From the NCBI GenBank assembly GCA_020722185.1, contig DYLH01000007.1, positions 1-62,841 of the forward strand: a stretch of DNA of 62,841 nt, given 5' to 3'. Shown here piece by piece: positions 9,629 through 24,092 of the stretch (its first letter is position 1; each line of letters opens with the position of its first letter). The position numbers were made by a program, and so were the translations under genes. This DNA is from Candidatus Avelusimicrobium gallicola. GTDB lineage: Bacteria; Elusimicrobiota; Elusimicrobia; Elusimicrobiales; UBA9959. Under the pieces are notes generated by a model. That model did not search any database. It was not told the origin of the DNA and was given only the letters and a program-made list of their open reading frames with translations.

Positions 9629-10900
9629 TTATTGCCTTCTTGATAGAATTTTTGACCCTATGTCCTTTCTAAAATGTTTTCCTGCAAATTTTATCTCTTC
9701 AGCTTTTTTATAAGCCTTTTCAATAGCCTCGCTCAAACTGGCACCCACAGCTGAAACACTTAAGACTCTGCCACCAGCCGTTATATACCTGCCATTCTCA
9801 TACTTTGTGCCAGCATGAAATATTTCAACCTCTCCTCTTGTTTCCAGTCCACTTATTTCATCTCCTTTTCTTGGATTCTCTGGATAGCCCTGCGCGGAAA
9901 GTACAATACAGGCGCAAGCTCCATTTTTAAGACTCACCTGTTCTTTTTCAAGCTTTCCGCCACAAGCCGCATCATAAAACAATTGAGACATATCCTCATC
10001 CACAAGAGGCAATATGGCCTGAGTCTCTGGGTCGCCAAAGCGACAATTAAATTCCAGAACCTTAGGACCGTTCTTTGTCATCATAATACCAGCGTATATT
10101 GCGCCTCTATAATCTATTTTCTCTGTTACTATTCCAGTTATGAATCGCCACAATATCTCATTTTTTATTTCATCAAACATTTCGCTATCCATCTCAACAG
10201 GGCACACAGCGCCCATTCCACCAGTATTTGGCCCCTCATCTCCATCATTTAGCCTTTTATGATCCATGGAGATAGGCAACATTGTAAAGGTTTTCCCATC
10301 AACTATCGCCATAACAGAACATTCCCATCCTTCAAGAAATTCCTCTATTATGACCTTTGAGCCAGAAGCGCCAAATATTTTTTTTTCCATAAAATCTTCA
10401 ATAGCTTGAAAAGCCTCAGACTCATTTTTGCATATTCTTACCCCTTTGCCAGATGCAAGGCCATCCGCTTTTATGACTATAGGATAAGATTTTTTCTCCC
10501 TGAGATATTCTCTGGCATAGGAAGAATCGTATACTATCTTAAAATCGGCTGTAGGGATATAATGTCTATTCATAAACTCTTTGGCCACCTGTTTTGAGGC
10601 CTCAAGTACTGCGCCTCGCATACGAGGACCAAAGACCTTTACTCCATTTTTTTCCAAAAAATCAGAAATGCCGCGTGAGAGCGGTTCTTCTGGCCCTATC
10701 ACAACCAAATCCACATTTTCCTTTTTGCATAGCTCAGCTATTTTTTCAAAGTCAAGAGCGCCGATTTCAAGACTCTCAGCTATTTCTGAAATAGCTTTAG
10801 AATATGGCAGTTGAAAAAGCTTTTTTATTTTTGGGCTTTGTTTTAGTTTCCAGCATATGACATGTTCTCTTGCGCCATTCCCTATAACCAAAATATTCAT
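9629..10900 (-). CDS. purD: Phosphoribosylamine--glycine ligase
   Basis: ILVIGNGAREH, IGPEEPL, KADGLASGKGV, GPNTGGMGA, EFNCRFGDPETQ; start refined to the ATG after GGAGG. Confidence 0.97.
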   Translation of the reverse strand: MNILVIGNGAREHVICWKLKQSPKIKKLFQLPYSKAISEIAESLEIGALDFEKIAELCKKENVDLVVIGPEEPLSRGISDFLEKNGVKVFGPRMRGAVLEASKQVAKEFMNRHYIPTADFKIVYDSSYAREYLREKKSYPIVIKADGLASGKGVRICKNESEAFQAIEDFMEKKIFGASGSKVIIEEFLEGWECSVMAIVDGKTFTMLPISMDHKRLNDGDEGPNTGGMGAVCPVEMDSEMFDEIKNEILWRFITGIVTEKIDYRGAIYAGIMMTKNGPKVLEFNCRFGDPETQAILPLVDEDMSQLFYDAACGGKLEKEQVSLKNGACACIVLSAQGYPENPRKGDEISGLETRGEVEIFHAGTKYENGRYITAGGRVLSVSAVGASLSEAIEKAYKKAEEIKFAGKHFRKDIGSKILSRRQ

Positions 10901-10948
10901 CATCCCTCCCAAATAAAATACATGTCTAAACCGTTTTCAAAAAATCTT

Positions 10949-12292
10949 CTAGTCCCTCTCAGGGTATTTCCCGTCAAAACATGCGCTACAGAAATTTCTA
11001 TCTGCATTTCCACAAACTTTTATAAGGCTTTCAAGCGACAAATAAAATAGACCGTCTGCTCCTATGAATTTCCTTATTTCATCAATTTTCTTAAATCTGA
11101 CAGCTATCAATTCTTCTTTTTTGGGAGTATCTATTCCATAAAAGCATGGAGAAATAATGGCGGGCGAAGCTATGGCCATTATCACTTTTTTCGCGCCAGC
11201 ATCTTTTAAACTTCTCACTATTTTTTTGGAAGTTGTCCCTCTCACAAGTGAATCATCTATAAGCAATATTTTTTTCCCCATTATGACATCTTTTATAGGC
11301 GCCAATTTTAAGTGGGCTGTGAACTCCCTCATTTTCTGGTCTGGCTGAATAAAAGACCTGCCGGCATAGTGATTTCGCATAAAGACTGGTTGATACACTA
11401 TTCCTGAGGCAGCTGAAAATCCCAAAGCATAAGCAGTGCCAGAATCAGGCACCCCAGACACTATATCGGCGTCAAAGCGTTCAATTTCCTTAGCAAGAAT
11501 CCTTCCTATTTCGTATCTTGCCTTTTGAACTGTTTGACCACAAATAACAGAATCTGGTCTGGCAAAATAAACTTGTTCAAATATGCACCTAGATATTTTT
11601 GTAGGTTTAGCAAATTGAGTAAATTTTATTTTTCCACTGTTCACAATAGCCATTTCCCCGGGCTCAATCTCAAACTCTATTTTTGCCCCTATAACTTCAA
11701 GCGCGCATGTTTCAGAAGAAAATACCCATGAATCTCCAAGTTTGCCTACTACAAGAGGCCTGAAACCATGTGGATCTCTCGCCGCTATTATTTTATCTTT
11801 TGTCAGAAAAAGAAATGAGTAAGCGCCCTTAAGCAAGGGGAGCTTTTCAGCTATGGCCTTATCCAAATTTTTCTGATGGCTTCGGCTGATTAAATGTATT
11901 ATGACTTCGCTGTCAGTGTCTGATTGAAAAATTGCGCCATCTTCAACAAGTTCTCTTCTAAGCTTTTGCGCGTTTACTATATTTCCATTGTGAGCCACAG
12001 CTATTTCGCCATATTTGCAATTGAAGTAAAGTGGTTGCGCATTATTCACACTACTTGAGCCGGCTGTCGAATACCTGACATGACCAATAGCGCTTTCACT
12101 TGAAATAGATGAAAGTATTTCAGGAGTAAAAATATCATTTACAAGCCCCATAGAATTGTAATACACCAGCCGCCCTTTTTTAACTCCGGCTATGCCAGCT
12201 GACTCCTGTCCCCTATGTTGCAAAGCAAAAAGTCCCAGATAAGAGAGTCGCGCGCTTTCCCTATTGTTTGCAACAGCGAAAATTCCGCACAT
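10949..12292 (-). CDS. purF: Amidophosphoribosyltransferase
   Basis: MCGIF N-terminal nucleophile, LQHRGQESAG, IGHVRYST, PRT motif IDDSLVRGTT, Fe-S cysteines. Confidence 0.98.
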   Translation of the reverse strand: MCGIFAVANNRESARLSYLGLFALQHRGQESAGIAGVKKGRLVYYNSMGLVNDIFTPEILSSISSESAIGHVRYSTAGSSSVNNAQPLYFNCKYGEIAVAHNGNIVNAQKLRRELVEDGAIFQSDTDSEVIIHLISRSHQKNLDKAIAEKLPLLKGAYSFLFLTKDKIIAARDPHGFRPLVVGKLGDSWVFSSETCALEVIGAKIEFEIEPGEMAIVNSGKIKFTQFAKPTKISRCIFEQVYFARPDSVICGQTVQKARYEIGRILAKEIERFDADIVSGVPDSGTAYALGFSAASGIVYQPVFMRNHYAGRSFIQPDQKMREFTAHLKLAPIKDVIMGKKILLIDDSLVRGTTSKKIVRSLKDAGAKKVIMAIASPAIISPCFYGIDTPKKEELIAVRFKKIDEIRKFIGADGLFYLSLESLIKVCGNADRNFCSACFDGKYPERD

Positions 12293-12319
12293 AATTCCTC
12301 CATAAAAATTCTTTAGAAA

Positions 12320-13027
12320 CTAAAATCTATAATTTGCGCCAAATGAAGCAAACCAACCTTCAAGAGCATATTTTACAGAACCTTCTTTTCTTGTTCCATT
12401 GATATAAAGCACTCCGAAACTTAAATCTCAAGTGGAGAAATCAATACTATTTTTATCTATCGCTGGCGTATCAAAAGCATACCCCAAAAGCGATGAAAAA
12501 GATTCATCCACAAATCTTTCAAGACCTAATCTAAATTTAAGCAATGTAGGCCAATCAAAAATATTTGGCTGACTTGTCAGATATACACTAGGATTTTTCA
12601 CAGTTATCTTATTTGAAAAGCCATTCCACCATGTCTGAGAAAAATCTGCGCTCAATTTAATTTTTTTATTCGGCTTATATAAAGCTCCTATGGTGGATGT
12701 AGGCGACTGCTTAACTTTGAAAGTTATGTCTGATTTTTCGAACATTACTCCGTTAACATAGGACTTGGCATCACATTCTATCTCAATCTTTGAACCAGTT
12801 CTAAAAACTGTCGCCACGCTCCATCTTTCATTGAAAGTATATTTCAATCCTGCCACTCCTTCAAAGACTAGGACATTTCCAGATATTTCTGTTTTCAGAT
12901 CATAAGCAGATGGGACATCTGGATGCAGAGCATTAACTCCAAGTTTTGTTTCTCCGCCAAGCAACCCACTGAGTATATTTAATCCACATCTAAATGACTT
13001 CAGATATTTTTTAAATATCCACCACAT
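12320..13027 (-). pseudogene. Remnant of a FadL/OmpP1-type outer-membrane beta-barrel gene
   Basis: No signal peptide; amphipathic beta strands (FRLGLERF, GYAFDTPA). The in-frame TGA at 12428-12430 is followed in the same frame by 35 codons ending ...GWFASFGANYRF* (TAG 12320-12322), a C-terminal beta-signal. Confidence 0.75.
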
Positions 13028-13072
13028 TAGAGTGGCCTCATGAAAAGAATATTTTTAAGTATAAAACATTGA

Positions 13073-13807
13073 TTATTTTACATAATCCACAGCATTTTTA
13101 AAAAAAGTATAGCCAACTGAAAGAAAATCTTTTAACTTTTTAGTTCCACTTTGAACAGAAAAAAAAGTTCTTTCAGGATGTGGCATCAAGCCAAGCAAAT
13201 TGCCGCGGCTATTGCATATTCCAGCAACATCCGCTATGGATCCATTTGGATTTTCCACATAAATCAAGGCATTTAAATTATTTTCAATAAGATCTTTAAG
13301 AGCATCCTCATCTGAAGGCACAAATTTTCCCTCGCCATGGGCTATTGGCAATTCAAACACATCGGGCAAACCTTTAGTGAATATACACGGACTTTTTTTA
13401 TTTATTCTGACTTTTACCCACTTGCATATAAAATGCCCTGCATCGTTTAAAAAAAGCGTAGCATTTCTTTTATAGTTTTTATCTTCTGGCAAAAATCCAG
13501 TTTTTACCAGAACCTGAAAGCCATTGCATATGCCTATGACGGGTTTCCCTGATTTAATGAATTTCTCAAAATTTTTTTTAAGTTTTACTATCTTTATAGC
13601 AAAAATTTTTCCGGCAGAAATATCATCCCCATAAGAAAATCCACCGGGCAAAGCCAGAATATCATAATCTTCAACATTTACATTTCCTTTTAATAATTCA
13701 TTTATATGAGCTATCTCAGCCTTAGCGCCACAATATCTAAATGCCGAAGCTGTTTCTAGATCGCAATTGGTTCCAGCGCCCCTTAAAACAAGAGCTTTTG
13801 GCTTCAT
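13073..13807 (-). CDS. purQ: FGAM synthase glutamine amidotransferase subunit
   Basis: GTNCD, PGGFSYGD, GICNGFQ, AHGEG, MPHPER. Confidence 0.97.
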   Translation of the reverse strand: MKPKALVLRGAGTNCDLETASAFRYCGAKAEIAHINELLKGNVNVEDYDILALPGGFSYGDDISAGKIFAIKIVKLKKNFEKFIKSGKPVIGICNGFQVLVKTGFLPEDKNYKRNATLFLNDAGHFICKWVKVRINKKSPCIFTKGLPDVFELPIAHGEGKFVPSDEDALKDLIENNLNALIYVENPNGSIADVAGICNSRGNLLGLMPHPERTFFSVQSGTKKLKDFLSVGYTFFKNAVDYVK

Positions 13808-16167
13808 ATTTTTTCTCCAAGAGAGTTTTTCCAGATTCCAAGCAGTTTTTCAATATCAGCATTTATTACTTCTTTTCCACAATGCTTTACTCTAATAACT
13901 TCTTCATCTACGACCTTCCCTATTCTGGCAATATCAGCTCCAGACATCATCTTGAGAAAATCTTTCTCCTTTTCAGCGTCCACTTCGACAATTATCATAC
14001 CCGGTCCTTCAGAAAACAAAATTTCTTGAATATCCCCTCTCTCACAAGCACTGCCGCCCATATCCACTTCACATGAAAACTCATCGAAAGACATTTTGGC
14101 TAAAGCTGTGGCAAGCCCTCCTTTTGAGATGTCATGCGCCGCCAAAATATATCCTTTTTCAATAGCTTTAGAAAGAGCTTTGTAATTTCTAATATATTTT
14201 TTAGGTTGAGGTTCTGCAAGTTTATTGCTTTTACATGAAAACAATCTGGAGTATACAGAAGCGCCAAGACCAAGTGCAAACTCGCCGACAAGGTATATGG
14301 GCGAACATGCTCTTTTAAATTCGCATGTAATAGCCTTTCTAATATCTTTTACTGGAGCTATAGCTGATATCAAAAGAGAAAGATCTATACGATATTCCTT
14401 ACCATTTATACTTGATTGATTGTAAAAACTGTCCTTGCCAGATATAAAAGGTGATTCGTATAATAAGGCTGCATCGCGACATCCTATTGCCGCCGCGGCG
14501 AAAGCGCCCAAAACATACTTATCATTTGGATTGGCACAGCAAAAATTGTCCAGCAAAGCCGTCCTTGAAATATCCGCTCCCACGCACACAAGGGATCTAA
14601 TTGCCTCGTCTATGGCATAAAAAGCCATTTTATAGGTATCAATTTTTCCAGCAAAAGAAAATCCATGAGAAACAGCAAATCCTTCAAAATTATTTTTCTT
14701 TCCAGTAATGGGATATGGCCATATAACTATAGCATCTGAAGGAGTTTGTTTTTTAACTCCATTAAATGGTTTTACAACTATTCCACCCTGAACTTCGTGG
14801 TCGTACTGCCTTATCACATATTCTCTGGAACAGACATTGATATCAGAGAGAATTTTTTCAAGTTCTTTGTTATAATCGTATTTTGGAGTAGGCAATTTAT
14901 TTACTACCTTCTGGCTTTTATACACAGCTTTCTTTTCAAACTTTGGAAGCCCGCCATGTAAGAAAGACATGTCTAAATCTACAATCTTTTCATCTCCATA
15001 AAAAACTTTCAATTTTCTTGAACCGTCAAAAACTCCAAGCTCGCAAATAGGACATTCTTCAATAGAGCAAATTTCTCTCAATTTTCCAATTTTTGATGGC
15101 GGAACAGCCATTATCATTCTCTCCTGAGATTCGCTCACCCAGATCTCCCACGGCTTTATTGAATTGTCTTTCAGTATAGCTTTTTTAATATCGACATGAA
15201 CTCCCGTCTCTTCACCCAGCTCACCTATGGCCGAGGAAAATCCGCCGGCACCACAGTCAGTAATGGCATCATAAAGTCCAAGAGAACCTGCCTTCATTAT
15301 CACATCTAAAACTTTCTTCTCATTTACAGCATGGCCTATTTGAACAGCGCTAGAAGCGCTATTTTCATCTATATCAGCGGAAGAAAAAGTCGCGCCATGT
15401 ATCCCATCGCGTCCAGTTGGACCACCTATGGCAACTACAATATCCCCTTTTTTAACTTTCTTAAAAACTTTATCTTTTGGCATAATGCCGACGCATCCTA
15501 CATAGACGAGGGGATTAAAGGTATAGCTTTCATCAAAGTGTATACTTCCAGCAGCCGTAGGAATACCCATTCTATTGCCGTAATCTCTGACCCCCTCTAC
15601 CACGCCCTCAAAAATTTTTTCAGGAGTGAGAAATCCCGACGAAATTTTTTTATTCCTGAGAGGGCCAAAACAAAAATTATCAGTATTCAAAACAGGTTTA
15701 GCGCCAAGACCAACACCCAGAATATCTCTTATCACTCCGCCGACACCGGTCTCAGCGCCGCCATAGGGAGCTATAGCGCATGGATGATTGTGAGTCTCCG
15801 CCTTAAAAGCCAAAGCCCATGGCGAATTAGGTGATAATTCAATAATACCGGCATTGTCCTTAAATACAGAAAGGCACCATTTTTTATTGAGTTTCTTTGT
15901 GGCGGCAACTATGGTTTCCTTGAATAAATTTGAAAATTTGATTTTTTTCCCATTGTAATTAAGAGAGACTGGTCCAGAAAAAGTTTTATGTTTACAATGT
16001 TCAGACCATGTCTGCGCTATTGTCTCCATTTCTGCCCGTGTAGGATTGTGGCCAAGCTTGATAAAATAATCTCTCGCCTTTGTAAGTTCAGCCAAATTTA
16101 GTGACCAGCCAAATTTTTCATTTAGTTTAATGAGATCTTTATCTTGAGCTTTTATAAAATTTTCCAT
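13804..16167 (-). CDS. purL: FGAM synthase subunit PurL (small type, 787 aa)
   Basis: QTWSEHCKHK, ETHNHP, GGAETGVGGVIRD, DCGAGG, SESQERM, SGKDSFYN. Confidence 0.97.
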   Translation of the reverse strand: MENFIKAQDKDLIKLNEKFGWSLNLAELTKARDYFIKLGHNPTRAEMETIAQTWSEHCKHKTFSGPVSLNYNGKKIKFSNLFKETIVAATKKLNKKWCLSVFKDNAGIIELSPNSPWALAFKAETHNHPCAIAPYGGAETGVGGVIRDILGVGLGAKPVLNTDNFCFGPLRNKKISSGFLTPEKIFEGVVEGVRDYGNRMGIPTAAGSIHFDESYTFNPLVYVGCVGIMPKDKVFKKVKKGDIVVAIGGPTGRDGIHGATFSSADIDENSASSAVQIGHAVNEKKVLDVIMKAGSLGLYDAITDCGAGGFSSAIGELGEETGVHVDIKKAILKDNSIKPWEIWVSESQERMIMAVPPSKIGKLREICSIEECPICELGVFDGSRKLKVFYGDEKIVDLDMSFLHGGLPKFEKKAVYKSQKVVNKLPTPKYDYNKELEKILSDINVCSREYVIRQYDHEVQGGIVVKPFNGVKKQTPSDAIVIWPYPITGKKNNFEGFAVSHGFSFAGKIDTYKMAFYAIDEAIRSLVCVGADISRTALLDNFCCANPNDKYVLGAFAAAAIGCRDAALLYESPFISGKDSFYNQSSINGKEYRIDLSLLISAIAPVKDIRKAITCEFKRACSPIYLVGEFALGLGASVYSRLFSCKSNKLAEPQPKKYIRNYKALSKAIEKGYILAAHDISKGGLATALAKMSFDEFSCEVDMGGSACERGDIQEILFSEGPGMIIVEVDAEKEKDFLKMMSGADIARIGKVVDEEVIRVKHCGKEVINADIEKLLGIWKNSLGEKI

Positions 16168-16170
16168 ATC

Positions 16171-16611
16171 TCAATCTGCCTTTACCAAATGTATTAGCTC
16201 ATTTGCAAAACATTCTTTTATAGCTTTACAAGCATCTCTGGCATTAAGTCCAGCCAGATAAAAAGCCTGACCAGTTTTGACACTGATGGGTTTAGGGAAA
16301 CCTGCCAATTCAATCGCCTGACAGACACTTTGTGATAGCACATCTGTCACCCCTTCCTTGAAAAGCATTTCAACTCTTGTGTATCCGCTCAGTTTTCGTG
16401 GAGAATCGGCTGAGAATTCTTCAACTATAAAATCGCTCAACACATCGCCAGATATCTGAAAAATTTCCTCTCTTCTGTAATGCCCTTCAAGTATATATAG
16501 CTTGCTTTCTCTGGCAGATTTGAGATTCGGGTAGAAATGCGAAATTTTTTTAATCAATTTTTTTTCTTCATTCTTTGCAAATTTATCTTTTGTAAAAACT
16601 TCTATTTTCAT
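16171..16611 (-). CDS. purS: PurS-like protein with two tandem PurS-type domains
   Basis: Lies between purC and purL; 146 aa, about twice a PurS; two similar halves (SDFIVEEF / ANELIH; KEGVTD). Confidence 0.7.
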   Translation of the reverse strand: MKIEVFTKDKFAKNEEKKLIKKISHFYPNLKSARESKLYILEGHYRREEIFQISGDVLSDFIVEEFSADSPRKLSGYTRVEMLFKEGVTDVLSQSVCQAIELAGFPKPISVKTGQAFYLAGLNARDACKAIKECFANELIHLVKAD

Positions 16612-17471
16612 AGCAATATTTTTTTTTCTATTTTATTGTACAACTCCACTGTTTTTTCAATAATATCTTTTGGCAATGCGGGCGGAGGCGGAGTTTTAAG
16701 ATCCCAGCCGCTTTTCATAAGCCAATTGCGAACAAATTGTTTATCATAGCTCTCAGGGCTTTTGCCGCAAGTCAAAGATTGAGCATTCCAAAATCTAGAT
16801 GAATCTGGCGTAAAAGCTTCATCTATGAGTATTAACTCATCATCGAGCAAACCAAATTCAAGTTTTGTATCAGCCAATATTATCCCTCTTTCCAAAAGAT
16901 AATTGTGGGCAAATTCATAAAGCTCAATTGATTTTTCCATTATTTTTTCTGCCAAGCTATCTCCGATAGTATTGGACATAAAATTAAAGGACACATTTTC
17001 ATCATGAGCTTTATCTGCCTTTGTGCTTGGAGTAAAAATAGGTTGTGGAAGTTTCTGAGATTCTTTAAGTCTACCCGGCAGTTTTATGCCACAAATAGAA
17101 CCGTTCTTTACATATTCTTTCCAACCGCTTCCGGTTATATATCCTCGAACTATGCATTCAAAATTGACTCTCTTTGCCCTAGCCGCCAAAATAGACCTGC
17201 CATCCAAATATTGAGGCAAATCAACACCTGAAATTTTTTTTATCTCCTCAAAATCACTGCTTATCAAGTGATTCTTAATTATATGTTTTGTCTTTTCAAA
17301 CCAAAAAAGACTTATACGATTGAGAGCCAATCCTTTTCCCGGTATTTCATTTGGCAAGACAAAATCAAAAGCGGATATTCTATCTGTGGCGCAAATAATC
17401 AATTTATCCTCACCAAGAAAATAAACATCCCTCACCTTGCCTTTGTATAATTTTAACTTTTCAATTTCCAC
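16608..17471 (-). CDS. purC: SAICAR synthetase
   Basis: YKGKVRDVY, TDRISAFD, ECIVRGYITGSGW, LADTKLEFG, TPDSSRFW, DKQFVR. Confidence 0.97.
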   Translation of the reverse strand: MEIEKLKLYKGKVRDVYFLGEDKLIICATDRISAFDFVLPNEIPGKGLALNRISLFWFEKTKHIIKNHLISSDFEEIKKISGVDLPQYLDGRSILAARAKRVNFECIVRGYITGSGWKEYVKNGSICGIKLPGRLKESQKLPQPIFTPSTKADKAHDENVSFNFMSNTIGDSLAEKIMEKSIELYEFAHNYLLERGIILADTKLEFGLLDDELILIDEAFTPDSSRFWNAQSLTCGKSPESYDKQFVRNWLMKSGWDLKTPPPPALPKDIIEKTVELYNKIEKKILL

Positions 17472-17481
17472 AATATAACTC

Positions 17482-19011
17482 CTATTCCCACTCTATAGTT
17501 GCCGGGGGCTTTGAGGTAATATCATAGACCACCCTATTTATTCCTTTAACCTCGCTTATAATGCGAGATGAAATCCTTGCAAGGAGACTATGGTCTAGTT
17601 TGGACCAATCAGCTGTCATCCCGTCGACGCTATCAACACAACGCAAGGCAAGGGCATTCTCATAGCTTCTCTCATCTCCCATAACGCCCACAGACTTTAC
17701 GGGCAAAAGCACGCAAAAAGCCTGCCATATTTTATAGTAAACTTTGGCATTAGATATTTCTTCTCTCATTATAAAATCTGCCTTTCTGAGAATATCTAAT
17801 CTATCACCTGTGACCTCGCCTATTATTCTTATTGCAAGACCCGGACCTGGAAATGGATGCTGGAAAAGTATTTCATCTGACAAGTGCAATTTCTTGCCTA
17901 TTTCCCGCACTTCATCTTTGAATAAAAATTTAAACGGCTCTATCAGCCTAAACCCTAATTTTTCAGGTAGTCCGCCTACATTGTGATGACTTTTTATAAC
18001 AGCTGATGGACCCTTAACTGAAACAGATTCTATGATATCTGGATAAAGAGTGCCCTGCAAAAGATATTTAGCGCCTTTTATTTTTTTAGCCTCTTTTTGA
18101 AAAACTTCTATAAAAGTAGCGCCTATTATCTTTCTTTTCTTTTCAGGATCTTCCACACCTTTTAATCTCCTTAAAAATACTGAGCTCGCATCCACGATTT
18201 TTATATTGAATTTGAATTTTTTCTTGAAAATATCTTCAATTCTCTCTTTGTCTTTTGCGCGTAAAAGACCTGTGTCCACAAAAACACAATTTAATTTTTT
18301 ACCTATGGCTTTATGCGCTAAAACAGCCGCTACAGAACTATCAACTCCTCCTGAAAGCGCGCATATAACCTTCTCATCCTCAACTAGATTTTTAATCTCT
18401 TTTATAGAGCTTTTTATAAAGTCTTCACTGTCAAAAAAATCTTTTATGCCACAAATTTCTCTGGCAAAATTATCCAAAATTTTTATGCCATTTTCGCTGT
18501 GATATACTTCAGGATGAAATTGCAAGGCATACATCTTTCTCTCTCTATTTTCCATTGCCGCTATCAAGCCATTTTCAGTTCTGGCTGAAACAGAAAAACC
18601 TTTGGGGACAGATTTAACCTCATCGCCATGACTCATCCAGACAGTGAATTTTTTTTCAATCCCCGAGAAAAGAAGTCCGCCAGAAACAGTAATTCTAGTA
18701 AGGCCATATTCTCTCTTGACAGCTTTTTTTATTTCTCCGCCCATATCGTGGGCAATAAGTTGCATACCATAACATATTCCAAGTATTGGCAGTGGACATG
18801 TGGCAATATCAAAAGGAGAATAAGGAGCGTCCTTGATATACACGCTTTGAGGACCACCTGAAAAAATGACACCTTTGACATCTTCTTTTTTGATTTCTTC
18901 AAAAGGCGTATTAAAAGGCAATATCTCGCAATAGATCTTGAGATTTCTCAGTCTCCTCGCTATTAGCTGAGTGTATTGACTTCCAAAATCAAGTATCAAT
19001 ATTTTTTCCAT
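17482..19011 (-). CDS. guaA: GMP synthase (glutamine-hydrolysing)
   Basis: [53 protein letters not shown]; start refined to 19011. Confidence 0.98.
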
Positions 19012-19015
19012 GTTT

Positions 19016-20182
19016 TTATTTTTGTTTGCCCATTCCCACAACTTGAGCTTTCTGTAAAAGTTTGCCCTCAGTCTTTATGGAAGGAGCTATTATTATTGGG
19101 ACCATCTGCATTTCCTTTATATTATGCGCGCCCAAAGCTCCCATTGATGTTTTAAGAGCGCCAACAAGATTTTGAGTGCCGTCATCTGTGCGAGCAGGGC
19201 CAAAGAGTATTTCCTCTATGCTCCCAGTAGTCCCGACATGAACTCTTGTCCCTCTTGGAAGATTGGCATGTGGTGTGGCCATACCCCAGTGATATCCGCG
19301 ACCAGGAGCTTCCTTGGCTTTAGCAAAAGGAGACCCTATCATAACAGCGTCAGAGCCAGATGCTATAGCTTTGCAAACATCCCCACCGGTTATCATCCCA
19401 CCATCTGTGATTATGGGGACATATCTGCCTGTTTTCTTGAAATACACATCTCTGGCTGCGGCGCAATCCACTGTGGCTGAAACCTGTGGAACTCCTATCC
19501 CCAAAACACCACGGCTTGTGCATGCGGCTCCGGGACCAACACCTATCAAAAGCCCCGCAGCCCCCGTCTCTATAAGTTCAAGGCTTGCTCTGTAAGTCAC
19601 GCAGTTTCCAAGAACCACAGGGATCTTCATTTCTTTTACAAATTTATAAAGATCTAGAGATTTTTGTTTTGAGGACTCATACCTTACGGAAATTACCGTA
19701 GATTGTACAAAAAAGATATCTGCGCCGGCATCCCTCGCTATTGGACCAAATTTTCCCGCATTTTGCGGTATACAGCTGACTGCGCATGGGACCTTGTGCT
19801 TTTTAATCTCTTCCACCCTTTTAGCTATTAGATGCGGCTTTATAGGTTCCTTGTAGATTTTTTGAAAAATTTCAGTCGATTCTTCCGGCTTGCAATTTAC
19901 CAATTTCTCCACTGCTTCCTGAGGATTTTCATAACGGCTATTTATTCCATCAAGATTTAGCACGGCAAGTCCGCCAAGTTTATTCATGGCTACAGCAAAA
20001 TCGACATTTACCACTCCGTCCATAGCCGAAGCTAAAAAAGGTATTTTCAATTTTATTCCGCCAAGATCCATTGATGTGTCTGTATCTTCAGGATCTATGG
20101 TAAGGCTGCCAGGCACTAGGGCTACATCATCAAAACCATAAGTCTGTCTCGCTTCTCTATTTCTACCTATATAGTGCGCCAT
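19016..20182 (-). CDS. guaB3: GuaB3-family IMP dehydrogenase (no CBS domains)
   Basis: [17 protein letters not shown], catalytic [18 protein letters not shown]; 388 aa without a CBS insert. Confidence 0.88.
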
Positions 20183-20198
20183 ATTTCCTCCTTTGAAT

Positions 20199-20241
20199 AA
20201 AAGAAAAAAGCCCGCTGAAAGAGTTTTTTTTTTCAGCGAGC
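20199..20241 (-). terminator. Intrinsic terminator inside the 5' leader of guaB3 (attenuator candidate)
   Basis: Minus strand GCTCGCTGAAA-10nt-TTTCAGCGGGC (11 bp, one G-U) followed by TTTTTTCTTTT; ends about 16 nt before the guaB3 ATG. Confidence 0.8.
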
Positions 20242-20293
20242 TGAGAATCCCAGTCTACACCAGATTCTTAAATCTTTGCAAATCTTTGATAAA

Positions 20294-20321
20294 ATTCTAA
20301 CAAATTGAAAAAAAAAAACAA
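20294..20321 (-). promoter_or_regulatory. Sigma70-type promoter of the gua/pur operon
   Basis: TTGTTT-16-TAGAAT with an extended TG; predicted +1 at about 20287. Confidence 0.55.
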
Positions 20322-20349
20322 AATTTTCAAAATTACATATAATAGCTAT

Positions 20350-21255
20350 ATGGGGAAAATAGAGCCCGTAATACATATTACTACAGCCTGCAATCATAGG
20401 TGTATATTTTGTTCAAGAAAATATAACCCGCCTGATCCGCCTGAGGCGCCAGATGAAGTGAACATGATACTTGAAGAATTCAAAGACACCATAACAATAG
20501 AAGGCGGAGAACCGACTCTTTCAAAAGAGCTGCCCATACTTTCTGCCAGAGCTAAAAAAGCCGGTATAAGAGAAGTTATGCTTGTCACCAATGGCTATTC
20601 TCTTGATGAACCAGAAAACATAAAAAAACTGCTTTCAGCAGGCATTGATATTTTCAATTTTAATTTCCCATCCCATATTGAGAAACTTTACAATACTTTA
20701 AGCGGATCAAAAAATTATCATAAAACAGTTTCCGCAATAAAAAACTGCATAAAAAATGCCGGGCCACAAAAAACAAGGTTGACAATGGTATTAAACTCCC
20801 TAAACTACAAGTACTTAAAAGGATATGCGCATTTTATAAAAAGGGAATTCGGCCAAATATTTTATGCTGAAATCAATATGATAAAACTGCTGGGCTCTGT
20901 AAGAAAAAGAATCTGGCTAATACCCCGACTTAAAGATATCGCACAATACTTAAAGGAAGGATTTTCTGAATTTGACAAATTGGGAATAAATTTTATTTCT
21001 GATGGGATACCGCTTTGTTTTATGAATGGATTTGAGCATAAAAATATAGATGCGTATATGTCTATCAAAGGCGGGTGTTTTTCAACTTCTGAAAAATCTC
21101 ATTTCAAGCCATGTTTATCGTGTAAAATTAAAAGTGTATGTCCTGGTCCCAGAAAAGACTATGTCTCTATTTTTGGATTTAATGAGCTGAAACCAGTTTC
21201 CAATCCACGCGCAAAGGAATTGATACTGAAAAGGATAAAAAGTGAAAGTAAATAA
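20350..21255 (+). CDS. Radical SAM protein with a Cys-rich C-terminal (SPASM/twitch-like) extension
   Basis: CNHRCIFC (CxxxCxxC), GGEPTL, VTNG; C-terminal CF...CLSCKIKSVCPG; start refined to ATG 20350. Confidence 0.88.
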   Translation: MGKIEPVIHITTACNHRCIFCSRKYNPPDPPEAPDEVNMILEEFKDTITIEGGEPTLSKELPILSARAKKAGIREVMLVTNGYSLDEPENIKKLLSAGIDIFNFNFPSHIEKLYNTLSGSKNYHKTVSAIKNCIKNAGPQKTRLTMVLNSLNYKYLKGYAHFIKREFGQIFYAEINMIKLLGSVRKRIWLIPRLKDIAQYLKEGFSEFDKLGINFISDGIPLCFMNGFEHKNIDAYMSIKGGCFSTSEKSHFKPCLSCKIKSVCPGPRKDYVSIFGFNELKPVSNPRAKELILKRIKSESK

Positions 21256-23855: not shown

Positions 23856-23909
23856 GAATAAATTATAGCGAATTTTTTTAACATTAATCAGTTTTTTTGC
23901 TATAATTAG

Positions 23910-24005
23910 GCTTACAGGGGAGCTTGGAATGGTCCAAGCTGAGATAGCGGGTTCGTCCCGCTGTACCCTTAGAACCTGAACCGGATAATGCCGGCGGAGG
24001 GAGAA
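23910..24005 (+). ncRNA. TPP riboswitch
   Basis: CAGGGGAGC...GCTGAGA...ACCCTTAGAACCTGAACCGGATAATGCCGGCGGAGGGA matches the THI-box; TGcTATAAT promoter at 23898-23906; upstream of thiC. Confidence 0.97.
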
Positions 24006-24092
24006 TGCAGAAGACAGATAAAAATCCCACAAGAAAATACACAAAAGTCACTTCCAATCTTTGCCATTTTCCCTTCATTATTGGAGGCGAAA

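Follow-up and report, generated by a model that had tools for sequence, protein, structure and literature searches.

A candidate transcription attenuator, restricted to one genus, in the leader of the guaB3-pur operon of Candidatus Avelusimicrobium gallicola

The purine operon that begins with guaB3 in Candidatus Avelusimicrobium gallicola (Elusimicrobiota) is preceded by a predicted intrinsic transcription terminator that faces the operon and ends just before its first start codon, which raises the question of how these genes are expressed and whether an RNA switch controls them. The locus lies on a stretch of 62,841 nucleotides (hereafter the window), which is contig C38 (GenBank DYLH01000007.1) of a 1.6-Mb metagenome-assembled genome with 37% G+C, here called G000. 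Its GTDB genus consists of three species, G000, G001 and G002, and further assemblies were reached through the 90% protein cluster of GuaB3 and the nearest clusters. A reading made from the letters alone (the sequence-only reading) had proposed an undescribed nucleotide-sensing switch or a protein-binding attenuator. The explanation favoured here, which is given about an even chance of being correct, is a transcription attenuator with no recognisable aptamer, confined to one genus and a single locus; it builds on the observed anatomy, conservation pattern and distribution of the leader, from which we infer actual termination, its regulation and a controlling agent. Because the terminator has been kept by selection, it probably throttles the guaB3-pur operon.

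The predicted leader extends about 105 nt, from position 20287 to the guaB3 ATG at 20182 on the reverse strand, and RNAfold arranges it as three tandem hairpins. Compared with dinucleotide shuffles, the fold has z-scores of -2.8 and -3.0, and 1 of 200 shuffles is as good. At the 5′ end lies a conserved segment (AAAGAUUUGCAAAGAUUUAA, 20268-20287, reverse strand), an AGNUUU direct repeat with a 10-nt period, within which the direct repeat AAAGATTT-GC-AAAGATTT occupies 20287-20280 and 20277-20270. It is followed by hairpin 1 (AGAAUCU/GGAUUCU, 20268-20262 and 20250-20244, with an 11-nt loop) and by the terminator hairpin, AGCUCGCUGAAA-A7CUC-UUUCAGCGGGCU (20242-20231 and 20220-20209), which has a predicted energy of -16.8 kcal/mol, 12 pairs including one U-G and six G-C, and a 10-nt loop. 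A run of ten A residues (20224-20233) crosses the top of the stem and the loop, and corresponds to A9-A11 in all variants of the core genus. The U-tract, U6CU4 (20199-20209; U4-5GUCU4-5 in relatives), ends 16 nt before the ATG, and the Shine-Dalgarno (SD) sequence of guaB3, GGAGG, lies at 20187-20191, 4 nt before it. The sequence-only reading had described the strong terminator facing guaB3 in this divergent region, the direct repeat and hairpin 1, all at coordinates that proved correct, and the terminator stem is 12 bp long.

The same reading had placed an extended -10 promoter upstream, with a start near 20287, and this too agrees with the present analysis. The promoter, AATTTG-T-TAGAAT (AATTTGTTAGAAT, 20294-20306, reverse strand), contains TG-T-TAGAAT at 20302-20294 and has no clear -35 element; A20287, the seventh base after the -10 element, is the start predicted from spacing, and an A is found at the same distance in every related leader. 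Just upstream lies an A/T-rich T11 tract resembling an UP element (20308-20318, reverse strand), one of five A/T homopolymer runs of at least 10 nt in the genome; a similar T-run occurs in P2, one of the related lineages described below, and none in G002. Matches to AATTTGTTAGAAT with at most one mismatch number 11 in the genome, versus 2 for the reversed control, and AATTTGnTAnAAT has 19 exact genomic copies, mostly before genes. In an alignment of guaB3 upstream regions from 18 genomes of the family, representing 13 genera, this promoter type is present in almost all and is nearly the sole conserved block (T115, T120, A121, A124 and T125 are invariant), while its flanks vary from A/T-rich to G+C-rich. 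The general promoter of these bacteria appears to be an extended -10 element with the fixed upstream part AATTTGnTAnAAT and no recognisable -35 element, and its occurrence upstream of guaB3 in nearly all genomes of the family argues that the transcript starts upstream of the hairpins. No promoter fits into the space of 16 nt that separates the U-tract from the ATG. Any guaB3 transcript must, as predicted, read through the terminator.

Hairpins followed by T-tracts, with energies of -12 to -22 kcal/mol, stand directly after many genes of G000, as in GGCCCCGG-TTTACA-CCGGGGCC-TTTTT at window positions 43339-43310, and since these are canonical terminators, the host polymerase should also recognise the one in the guaB3 leader. 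A strict scan of the genome found four hairpin/T-tract sites in leader position, with no co-directional gene before them, of which only that of guaB3 is near a start codon (20 nt).

The full leader architecture is found in five lineages (G000, G001, G002/L203, L201/L205/L209 and L207/L208), in the order TAnAAT, six bases and A, then the 5′ segment, a hairpin, the terminator, the U-tract and the SD sequence. Their terminators share the pattern AGCUCGCUGA-A9-11-...-(C/U)(A/G)GCG(G/A)GCU followed by U4-5GUCU4-5. Two further lineages, P2 (L195, 90% protein identity) and P4 (L197/198, 87%), carry the terminator only. Here the promoter leads at once into the stem, which begins at about +2, with neither 5′ segment nor hairpin 1 (P2, ATAGCTCGCTG-AAATCAAAAAATGAAA-CAGCGAGC-ATTTTTTTG; P4, ATAGCTCGCTGA-CAATGTAGAATTGCC-TTAGCGGGCT-TTTTGACTTTTT). 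As the P4 hairpin starts at about +2 and its U-tract ends only 12 nt before the SD sequence, read-through would be the sole route to expression there. A G+C-rich hairpin followed by a U-tract, the sequence hallmark of an intrinsic terminator, is thus found in seven lineages, with hairpin energies of -15 to -21 kcal/mol.

The conservation of this hairpin was set against the synonymous divergence of guaB3, measured at the third positions of conserved four-fold-type residues. Identity at these positions is 0.28-0.43 between lineages, which amounts to saturation, with the exception of G000 versus L207 (55%). The 5′ arm of the terminator, AGCUCGCUGA, is nevertheless identical at 10 of 10 positions in all seven lineages. 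Three stem positions vary, all of them in the 3′ arm and all wobble-compatible: U-G has become U-A in L201 and P2, U-A has become U-G in G002, and G-C has become G-U in P4. The U-tract is kept across the terminator-bearing lineages, and in the five with a full leader the A9-A11 run and the 5′ segment are also conserved, the latter as AGAUUUGCRAAGNUUUAA over 18-20 nt with 12 invariant columns in seven variants, whereas hairpin 1 and the spacer before the SD sequence are not. By the evidence of these comparisons the terminator is real and under purifying selection, and the units under selection appear to be the terminator and, in the core genus, the 5′ segment together with the A-run. Identity of the stem despite saturated neutral sites suggests that its sequence, and not only its pairing, is read by some factor. 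A self-hairpin formed by the direct repeat, with a GNRA-like loop, was considered and rejected, as its energy is only 0 to -1.3 kcal/mol and its pair 6-15 is broken in two lineages.

Some observations on repeats and homopolymers near these loci stand apart from this argument. G000 contains 91 A/T homopolymer runs of at least 9 nt, of which 86 are exactly 9 long and five reach 10-11, and two of these five flank the guaB3 promoter and leader. The length of the A-run differs (9, 10 or 11) between near-identical contigs, namely L203 versus G002 and L207 versus L208; selection against slippery runs or an assembly effect could produce this pattern. A 600-nt gene-free region upstream of the P4 promoter (L197:1030-1430) contains at least six (A/G)GCGAGC-like words that resemble the 3′ arm (CAGCGAGC). 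Two loci that encode an identical GuaB3 (P0001), L191:1300-1500 and L192:76-275, have two quite different upstream regions, one of which carries TAATTACTA-like repeats forming a long inverted repeat.

The element is narrowly distributed. A covariance model of the full leader recovers one site each in G000, G001 and G002 (E = 1e-15 to 1e-16) and nothing below E = 0.15 in the 58 other genomes of the family (61 searched). When 401 genomes of the phylum were scanned for the stem pattern, the one match outside the genus, in G004, fell inside an open reading frame (ORF) of 635 amino acids and is a chance match. The terminator is present only in this genus and its close relatives, in one copy per genome, and its stem sequence is unique in G000, where searches by BLAST, regular expression and position-weight matrix found no second copy of the 5′ segment, and none of the stem 8-mers was found again; a 17-nt match on contig C5 was dismissed as a second copy, being antisense inside a coding region. 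Among 152 guaB3 loci of several phyla, 28 have a hairpin with a T-tract within 200 nt and about ten within 95 nt, several of these sites being terminators that belong to the preceding gene and extend over the promoter of guaB3, and no motif is shared among these leaders; such sites recur but are not a general feature. A separate observation concerns G015 and G026, which belong to different families and share a guaB3 leader block of about 50 nt (L005:2640-2790 and L018:2660-2760, both reverse strand) that reads GCTCAGGTGGATAG.CTG..GGC.GTTAG.CTG.AGGTA ... ATAGCCTTCAG. Its UUAGGCUGxAGG is complementary at long range to CCUUCAGCCUAA; it has no U-tract and no Rfam match, and could represent another, wider leader RNA belonging to this operon.

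In the favoured explanation, RNA polymerase would start at the housekeeping-type extended -10 promoter, make a leader of about 85-90 nt and meet the strong intrinsic terminator just before the ribosome-binding site, so that the nine-gene guaB3/guaA/pur operon would be expressed by read-through only. The efficiency of termination would not depend on a small-molecule pocket in hairpin 1 but on another determinant. One option is a factor acting in trans, with the invariant 5′ arm or the 5′ segment as its recognition site. Another is a competition between the 5′ segment (GCGA..UUU) and the 3′ arm, both able to pair with the 5′ arm (UCGC..AAA/AGC), in which the A-run would introduce a delay. When transcripts were truncated before the 3′ arm and folded, the 5′ segment paired with the 5′ arm, enclosing hairpin 1, in G001, G002, L201 and L207, while in the G000 transcript the inner part of hairpin 1 took this place as the partner of the arm. 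RNAalifold of the truncated leaders pairs GCGA..GUUU with NAGC-UCGC in 13 pairs. Such pairing would be the most economical, if weak, link between the two conserved blocks. The sequence-only reading had envisaged a different alternative structure, a small hairpin (UCAG-CUCG-CUGA) bridging hairpin 1 and the terminator in a 1:2/2:3/3:4 switch. This hairpin is present in G000 but cannot form in G001, G002, L201 or L207, and the proposed switch is not supported; the RNAalifold alternative does not rise above shuffled controls.

Several results weigh against the favoured explanation. The RNAalifold pairing is weak (-4.8 kcal/mol, covariation term -0.11); natural changes break pairs between the 5′ segment and the 5′ arm (G to A in G000 and G001, and G to A in G002); and the pairing probability of the 5′ arm does not exceed that of controls with shuffled upstream sequence (p = 0.10-0.69). 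In P2 and P4 the stem is conserved with no RNA ahead of it, and an antiterminator cannot be the reason there. The terminator is also dispensable, being absent from two close lineages, P1 and P3, and from every other genus: P3 (88% protein identity) has a 35-nt leader with no terminator, P1 has unrelated sequence upstream of guaB3, and elsewhere in the family guaB3 leaders are short or of another kind. No candidate for a regulator gene was found in or adjoining the guaB3-purD operon, where a 199-amino-acid ORF resembles an outer-membrane beta-barrel fragment and a 146-amino-acid ORF is PurS-like, and both were rejected as regulators. Finally, a search of sequencing runs met the locus and its relatives only in DNA metagenomes (from biofilm, groundwater, sludge and a hot spring) and in no RNA run; from the contigs of four runs, only the L203 variant was recovered.

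The attenuator proposed here has its nearest counterparts among known leaders that control nucleotide and amino acid biosynthesis. Like the pyrG leader of Bacillus subtilis (RF02371), it is a short leader of nucleotide-biosynthesis genes in which the only obvious structure is an intrinsic terminator. The pyrG leader has no aptamer and no leader peptide, and is controlled by the polymerase and the nucleoside triphosphate pool through reiterative transcription. RF02371 is among the best matches to the guaB3 leader, all of them at chance level (22 bits and E = 1, with a gathering threshold of 65). pyrG transcripts start with GGGC, and added G residues pair with a terminator arm rich in C and U, whereas guaB3 leaders start with A(N)AG. 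A reiterative attenuator of the pyrG type was rejected, as the starts are AAAG, AUAG, AGAG and AGAU, with three identical bases in G000 only, and the arm AGCUCGCUGA is complementary to neither poly-A nor poly-U. A trans-acting protein on an RNA segment upstream of the terminator would resemble PyrR and TRAP attenuation of the Bacillus pyr and trp operons, and the protein-binding attenuator that the sequence-only reading had offered is possible. The guaB3 leader differs from these systems: nothing in it matches the PyrR site, it has no arrays of (G/U)AG triplets at TRAP spacing, and the analysis found neither a conserved antiterminator nor a gene for a regulator within or beside the operon. PyrR and TRAP systems also act at several loci, while this leader is confined to one.

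The simplest alternative is that the terminator is constitutive, unregulated and leaky, and merely lowers the output of a strong promoter, perhaps with the 5′-proximal structure protecting the mRNA end and with no sensing of purines. It would account for P2 and P4, where the hairpin stands alone at about +2 and leaves no room for sensor RNA, for the lineages and genera that manage without a terminator, and for the failure to find a conserved alternative structure, aptamer or leader peptide. A simple dampener would, however, be free to drift in a compensatory manner, whereas an invariant 5′ arm, a conserved 5′ segment and the A9-A11 run have persisted despite saturation, and weakening the promoter would be an easier way to lower expression. 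This explanation is considered unlikely, though it deserves to be taken seriously.

A small undescribed riboswitch, in which the 5′ segment and hairpin 1, and possibly the A-run, would bind a purine-related metabolite and choose between antiterminator and terminator, is regarded as improbable. The position before a purine operon, the conserved 18-20-nt 5′ segment, a hairpin in constant register and an A-rich tract that recalls small pseudoknot aptamers are what such a switch might present. Hairpin 1, on which it would depend, behaves as a variable spacer hairpin and not as a conserved aptamer. It keeps its stem register, but its sequence, loop and energy (-0.2 to -16.2 kcal/mol) vary among lineages, with the stems AGAAUCU/GGAUUCU, GGUCCG/CGGACU, AGUUC/GGAUU, GGGUCUGG/CCGGGCCC and AAUCU/AGAUU and loops of 6-11 unrelated bases; the leader comparison thus found no conservation of hairpin 1 in relatives, on which the nucleotide-sensing aptamer of the sequence-only reading would have depended. 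In an alignment of seven rows, pairing holds in 91% of cells, and hairpin 1 has three pairs with changes in both partners, yet this covariation is not significant, 78-230 of 500 shuffles being as good, and the loops could not be assigned a pseudoknot partner consistently. A riboswitch is unlikely because the candidate aptamer is the least conserved part of the leader and is absent in two lineages (P2 and P4), and the occurrence of one copy per genome in a single genus also speaks against one.

Database comparisons bear on the same point. At gathering thresholds, an Rfam cmscan of the leader and 22 related loci returned nothing, which upholds the earlier statement that no purine, ZTP, PRPP/ppGpp or PyrR element is present. 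With a permissive E-value, the leader and six variant loci gave chance hairpin matches only (E = 0.26-4.9), which differed from variant to variant; these matches, including miRNA precursors, SpF39 and the PyrG leader (22 of 65 bits), were set aside as chance. The guaB3 leader shares with the purine (RF00167), ZTP, PRPP/ppGpp (ykkC subtype 2) and preQ1-I riboswitches the use of a terminator as platform and the context of purine genes, and with preQ1-I an A-rich tract, but it lacks their conserved junction or loop nucleotides, and none of these families matched the seven variant leaders at E-values up to 5-10. With no match to a known family, a riboswitch at this locus would be a new one. A search of the literature on riboswitches in Elusimicrobia found nothing relevant. 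Two further kinds of leader element were rejected. A leader-peptide attenuator does not fit a leader with no AUG and a sole UUG frame, without an SD sequence, of 8 codons in G000, 4 in G001 and 15 in L201. ANTAR targets consist of two tandem hexaloop hairpins, with A at position 1 and G at position 4 of the loop, the second overlapping the terminator; here the loops have 4 nt (in a negligible hairpin) and 6-11 nt, and an AxxGxx hexaloop occurs in L201 only.

The terminated transcript of about 85-90 nt might itself be a small RNA, derived from the 5′ untranslated region or with a dual function, that uses its single-stranded 5′ end as a seed. Its conserved 5′ segment, variable middle and conserved terminator follow the classical seed-hairpin-terminator layout, and P2 and P4 would yield a hairpin-only RNA of 45 nt. 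Attenuators are known to give rise to small RNAs, such as rnTrpL in Sinorhizobium and the riboswitch-derived SreA and SreB in Listeria, and like these a terminated leader with a conserved 5′ part could act in trans. Unlike them, the 5′ segment shows no target signal above shuffled seeds: against 1336 translation-initiation regions the seed reached at best -14.5 kcal/mol, whereas the minimum for shuffled seeds averages -15.8. The element is, moreover, always fixed before guaB3, and a role as a small RNA seems improbable.

Two proposals are given very little credence. One is a more specific mechanism, in which the leader is an ATP-sensing attenuator that needs no aptamer, or in which a dedicated RNA-binding protein reads AGCUCGCUGA. 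In the ATP-sensing form, pairing of the 5′ arm with the 5′ segment would mean read-through and pairing with the 3′ arm would mean a stop, and, owing to the A9-A11 run that lies between the two arms, the choice would follow from the speed at which the polymerase adds ATP. The ancestral form of the switch would be represented by P2 and P4, with their bare terminator at +2. The other is a DNA operator for a repressor, formed by the direct repeat at +1 to +20 (AGATTT-N4-AGATTT) or by the hairpin palindrome, which would draw on a 10-bp-period repeat overlapping the start site, where operators often lie, and on conservation of the stem sequence and not merely of its pairing, but which faces a position-weight scan that finds no second genomic site and thus no regulon, a distance between palindrome arms that varies among lineages and is thus ill-suited to a dimeric DNA binder, a U-G pair that favours a hairpin on the transcribed strand, a conserved U-tract, and the lack of the direct repeat in P2 and P4.

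Downstream of the leader, the operon (9629-20182, reverse strand) comprises nine genes over about 10.5 kb, guaB3-guaA-purC-purS-like-purL-purQ-ORF-purF-purD; its first gene matches TIGR01304 with 454 bits, and a pattern scan found no strong terminator inside this stretch. The sequence-only reading had the leader in control of the gua/pur genes, which would apply to these nine, while purH and purM lie elsewhere without a similar leader. The purH homologue (C26:33092-34546) is directly behind the preceding gene and overlaps its end, and the purM homologue (C11:87950-88452) has its own upstream region. The leader is thus predicted to govern the nine listed genes, not the entire purine pathway. 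As to the state of these two homologues, purM is broken by a run of N in the assembly, and purH falls below its family cut-off (210 of 528 bits). Within the operon, the 199-amino-acid ORF between purQ and purF (window 12428-13027, reverse strand) has a faint outer-membrane beta-barrel match, and the PurS-like ORF (window 16171-16611, reverse strand) encodes 146 amino acids, about twice the usual length, with the PurS match in its C-terminal half only. A GuaB3 query returned one gene each in G000, G001 and G002 but no canonical IMP dehydrogenase containing CBS domains; both kinds occur in some other genera. With no second gene of this kind seen, the genus may have GuaB3 as its sole IMP dehydrogenase-like enzyme.

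On the other side of the 167-nt intergenic region lies a divergent radical-SAM gene (20350-21255, forward strand), which is not part of the element; the arrangement recurs in G001, G002 and L203. This gene has no SD sequence, and a perfect TATAAT ends 6 nt before its ATG at 20350 (window 20335-20352, forward strand), which suggests that its mRNA may be leaderless. The only Rfam riboswitch in the window is a thiamine pyrophosphate (TPP) riboswitch before thiC (23906-24019, forward strand, 74 bits).

The element is most likely a new case of the broad class of transcription attenuators, limited to one genus and one locus. If it is merely a constitutive dampener, the finding is an ordinary one, and in either case the locus is removed from the list of riboswitch candidates. 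The promoter type with AATTTGnTAnAAT and no -35 element is now documented and helps the annotation of start sites in these genomes. If termination is regulated, the leader would be the first element described as controlling purine synthesis in the Elusimicrobiota, a phylum with, to our knowledge, almost no experimental genetics, and it would be an unusually simple one, in which a single hairpin is under selection for its sequence as well as its shape. The lineages examined, which have no terminator, a bare terminator at +2, or a terminator with a conserved 5′ extension, offer a natural series for the assembly of an attenuator.

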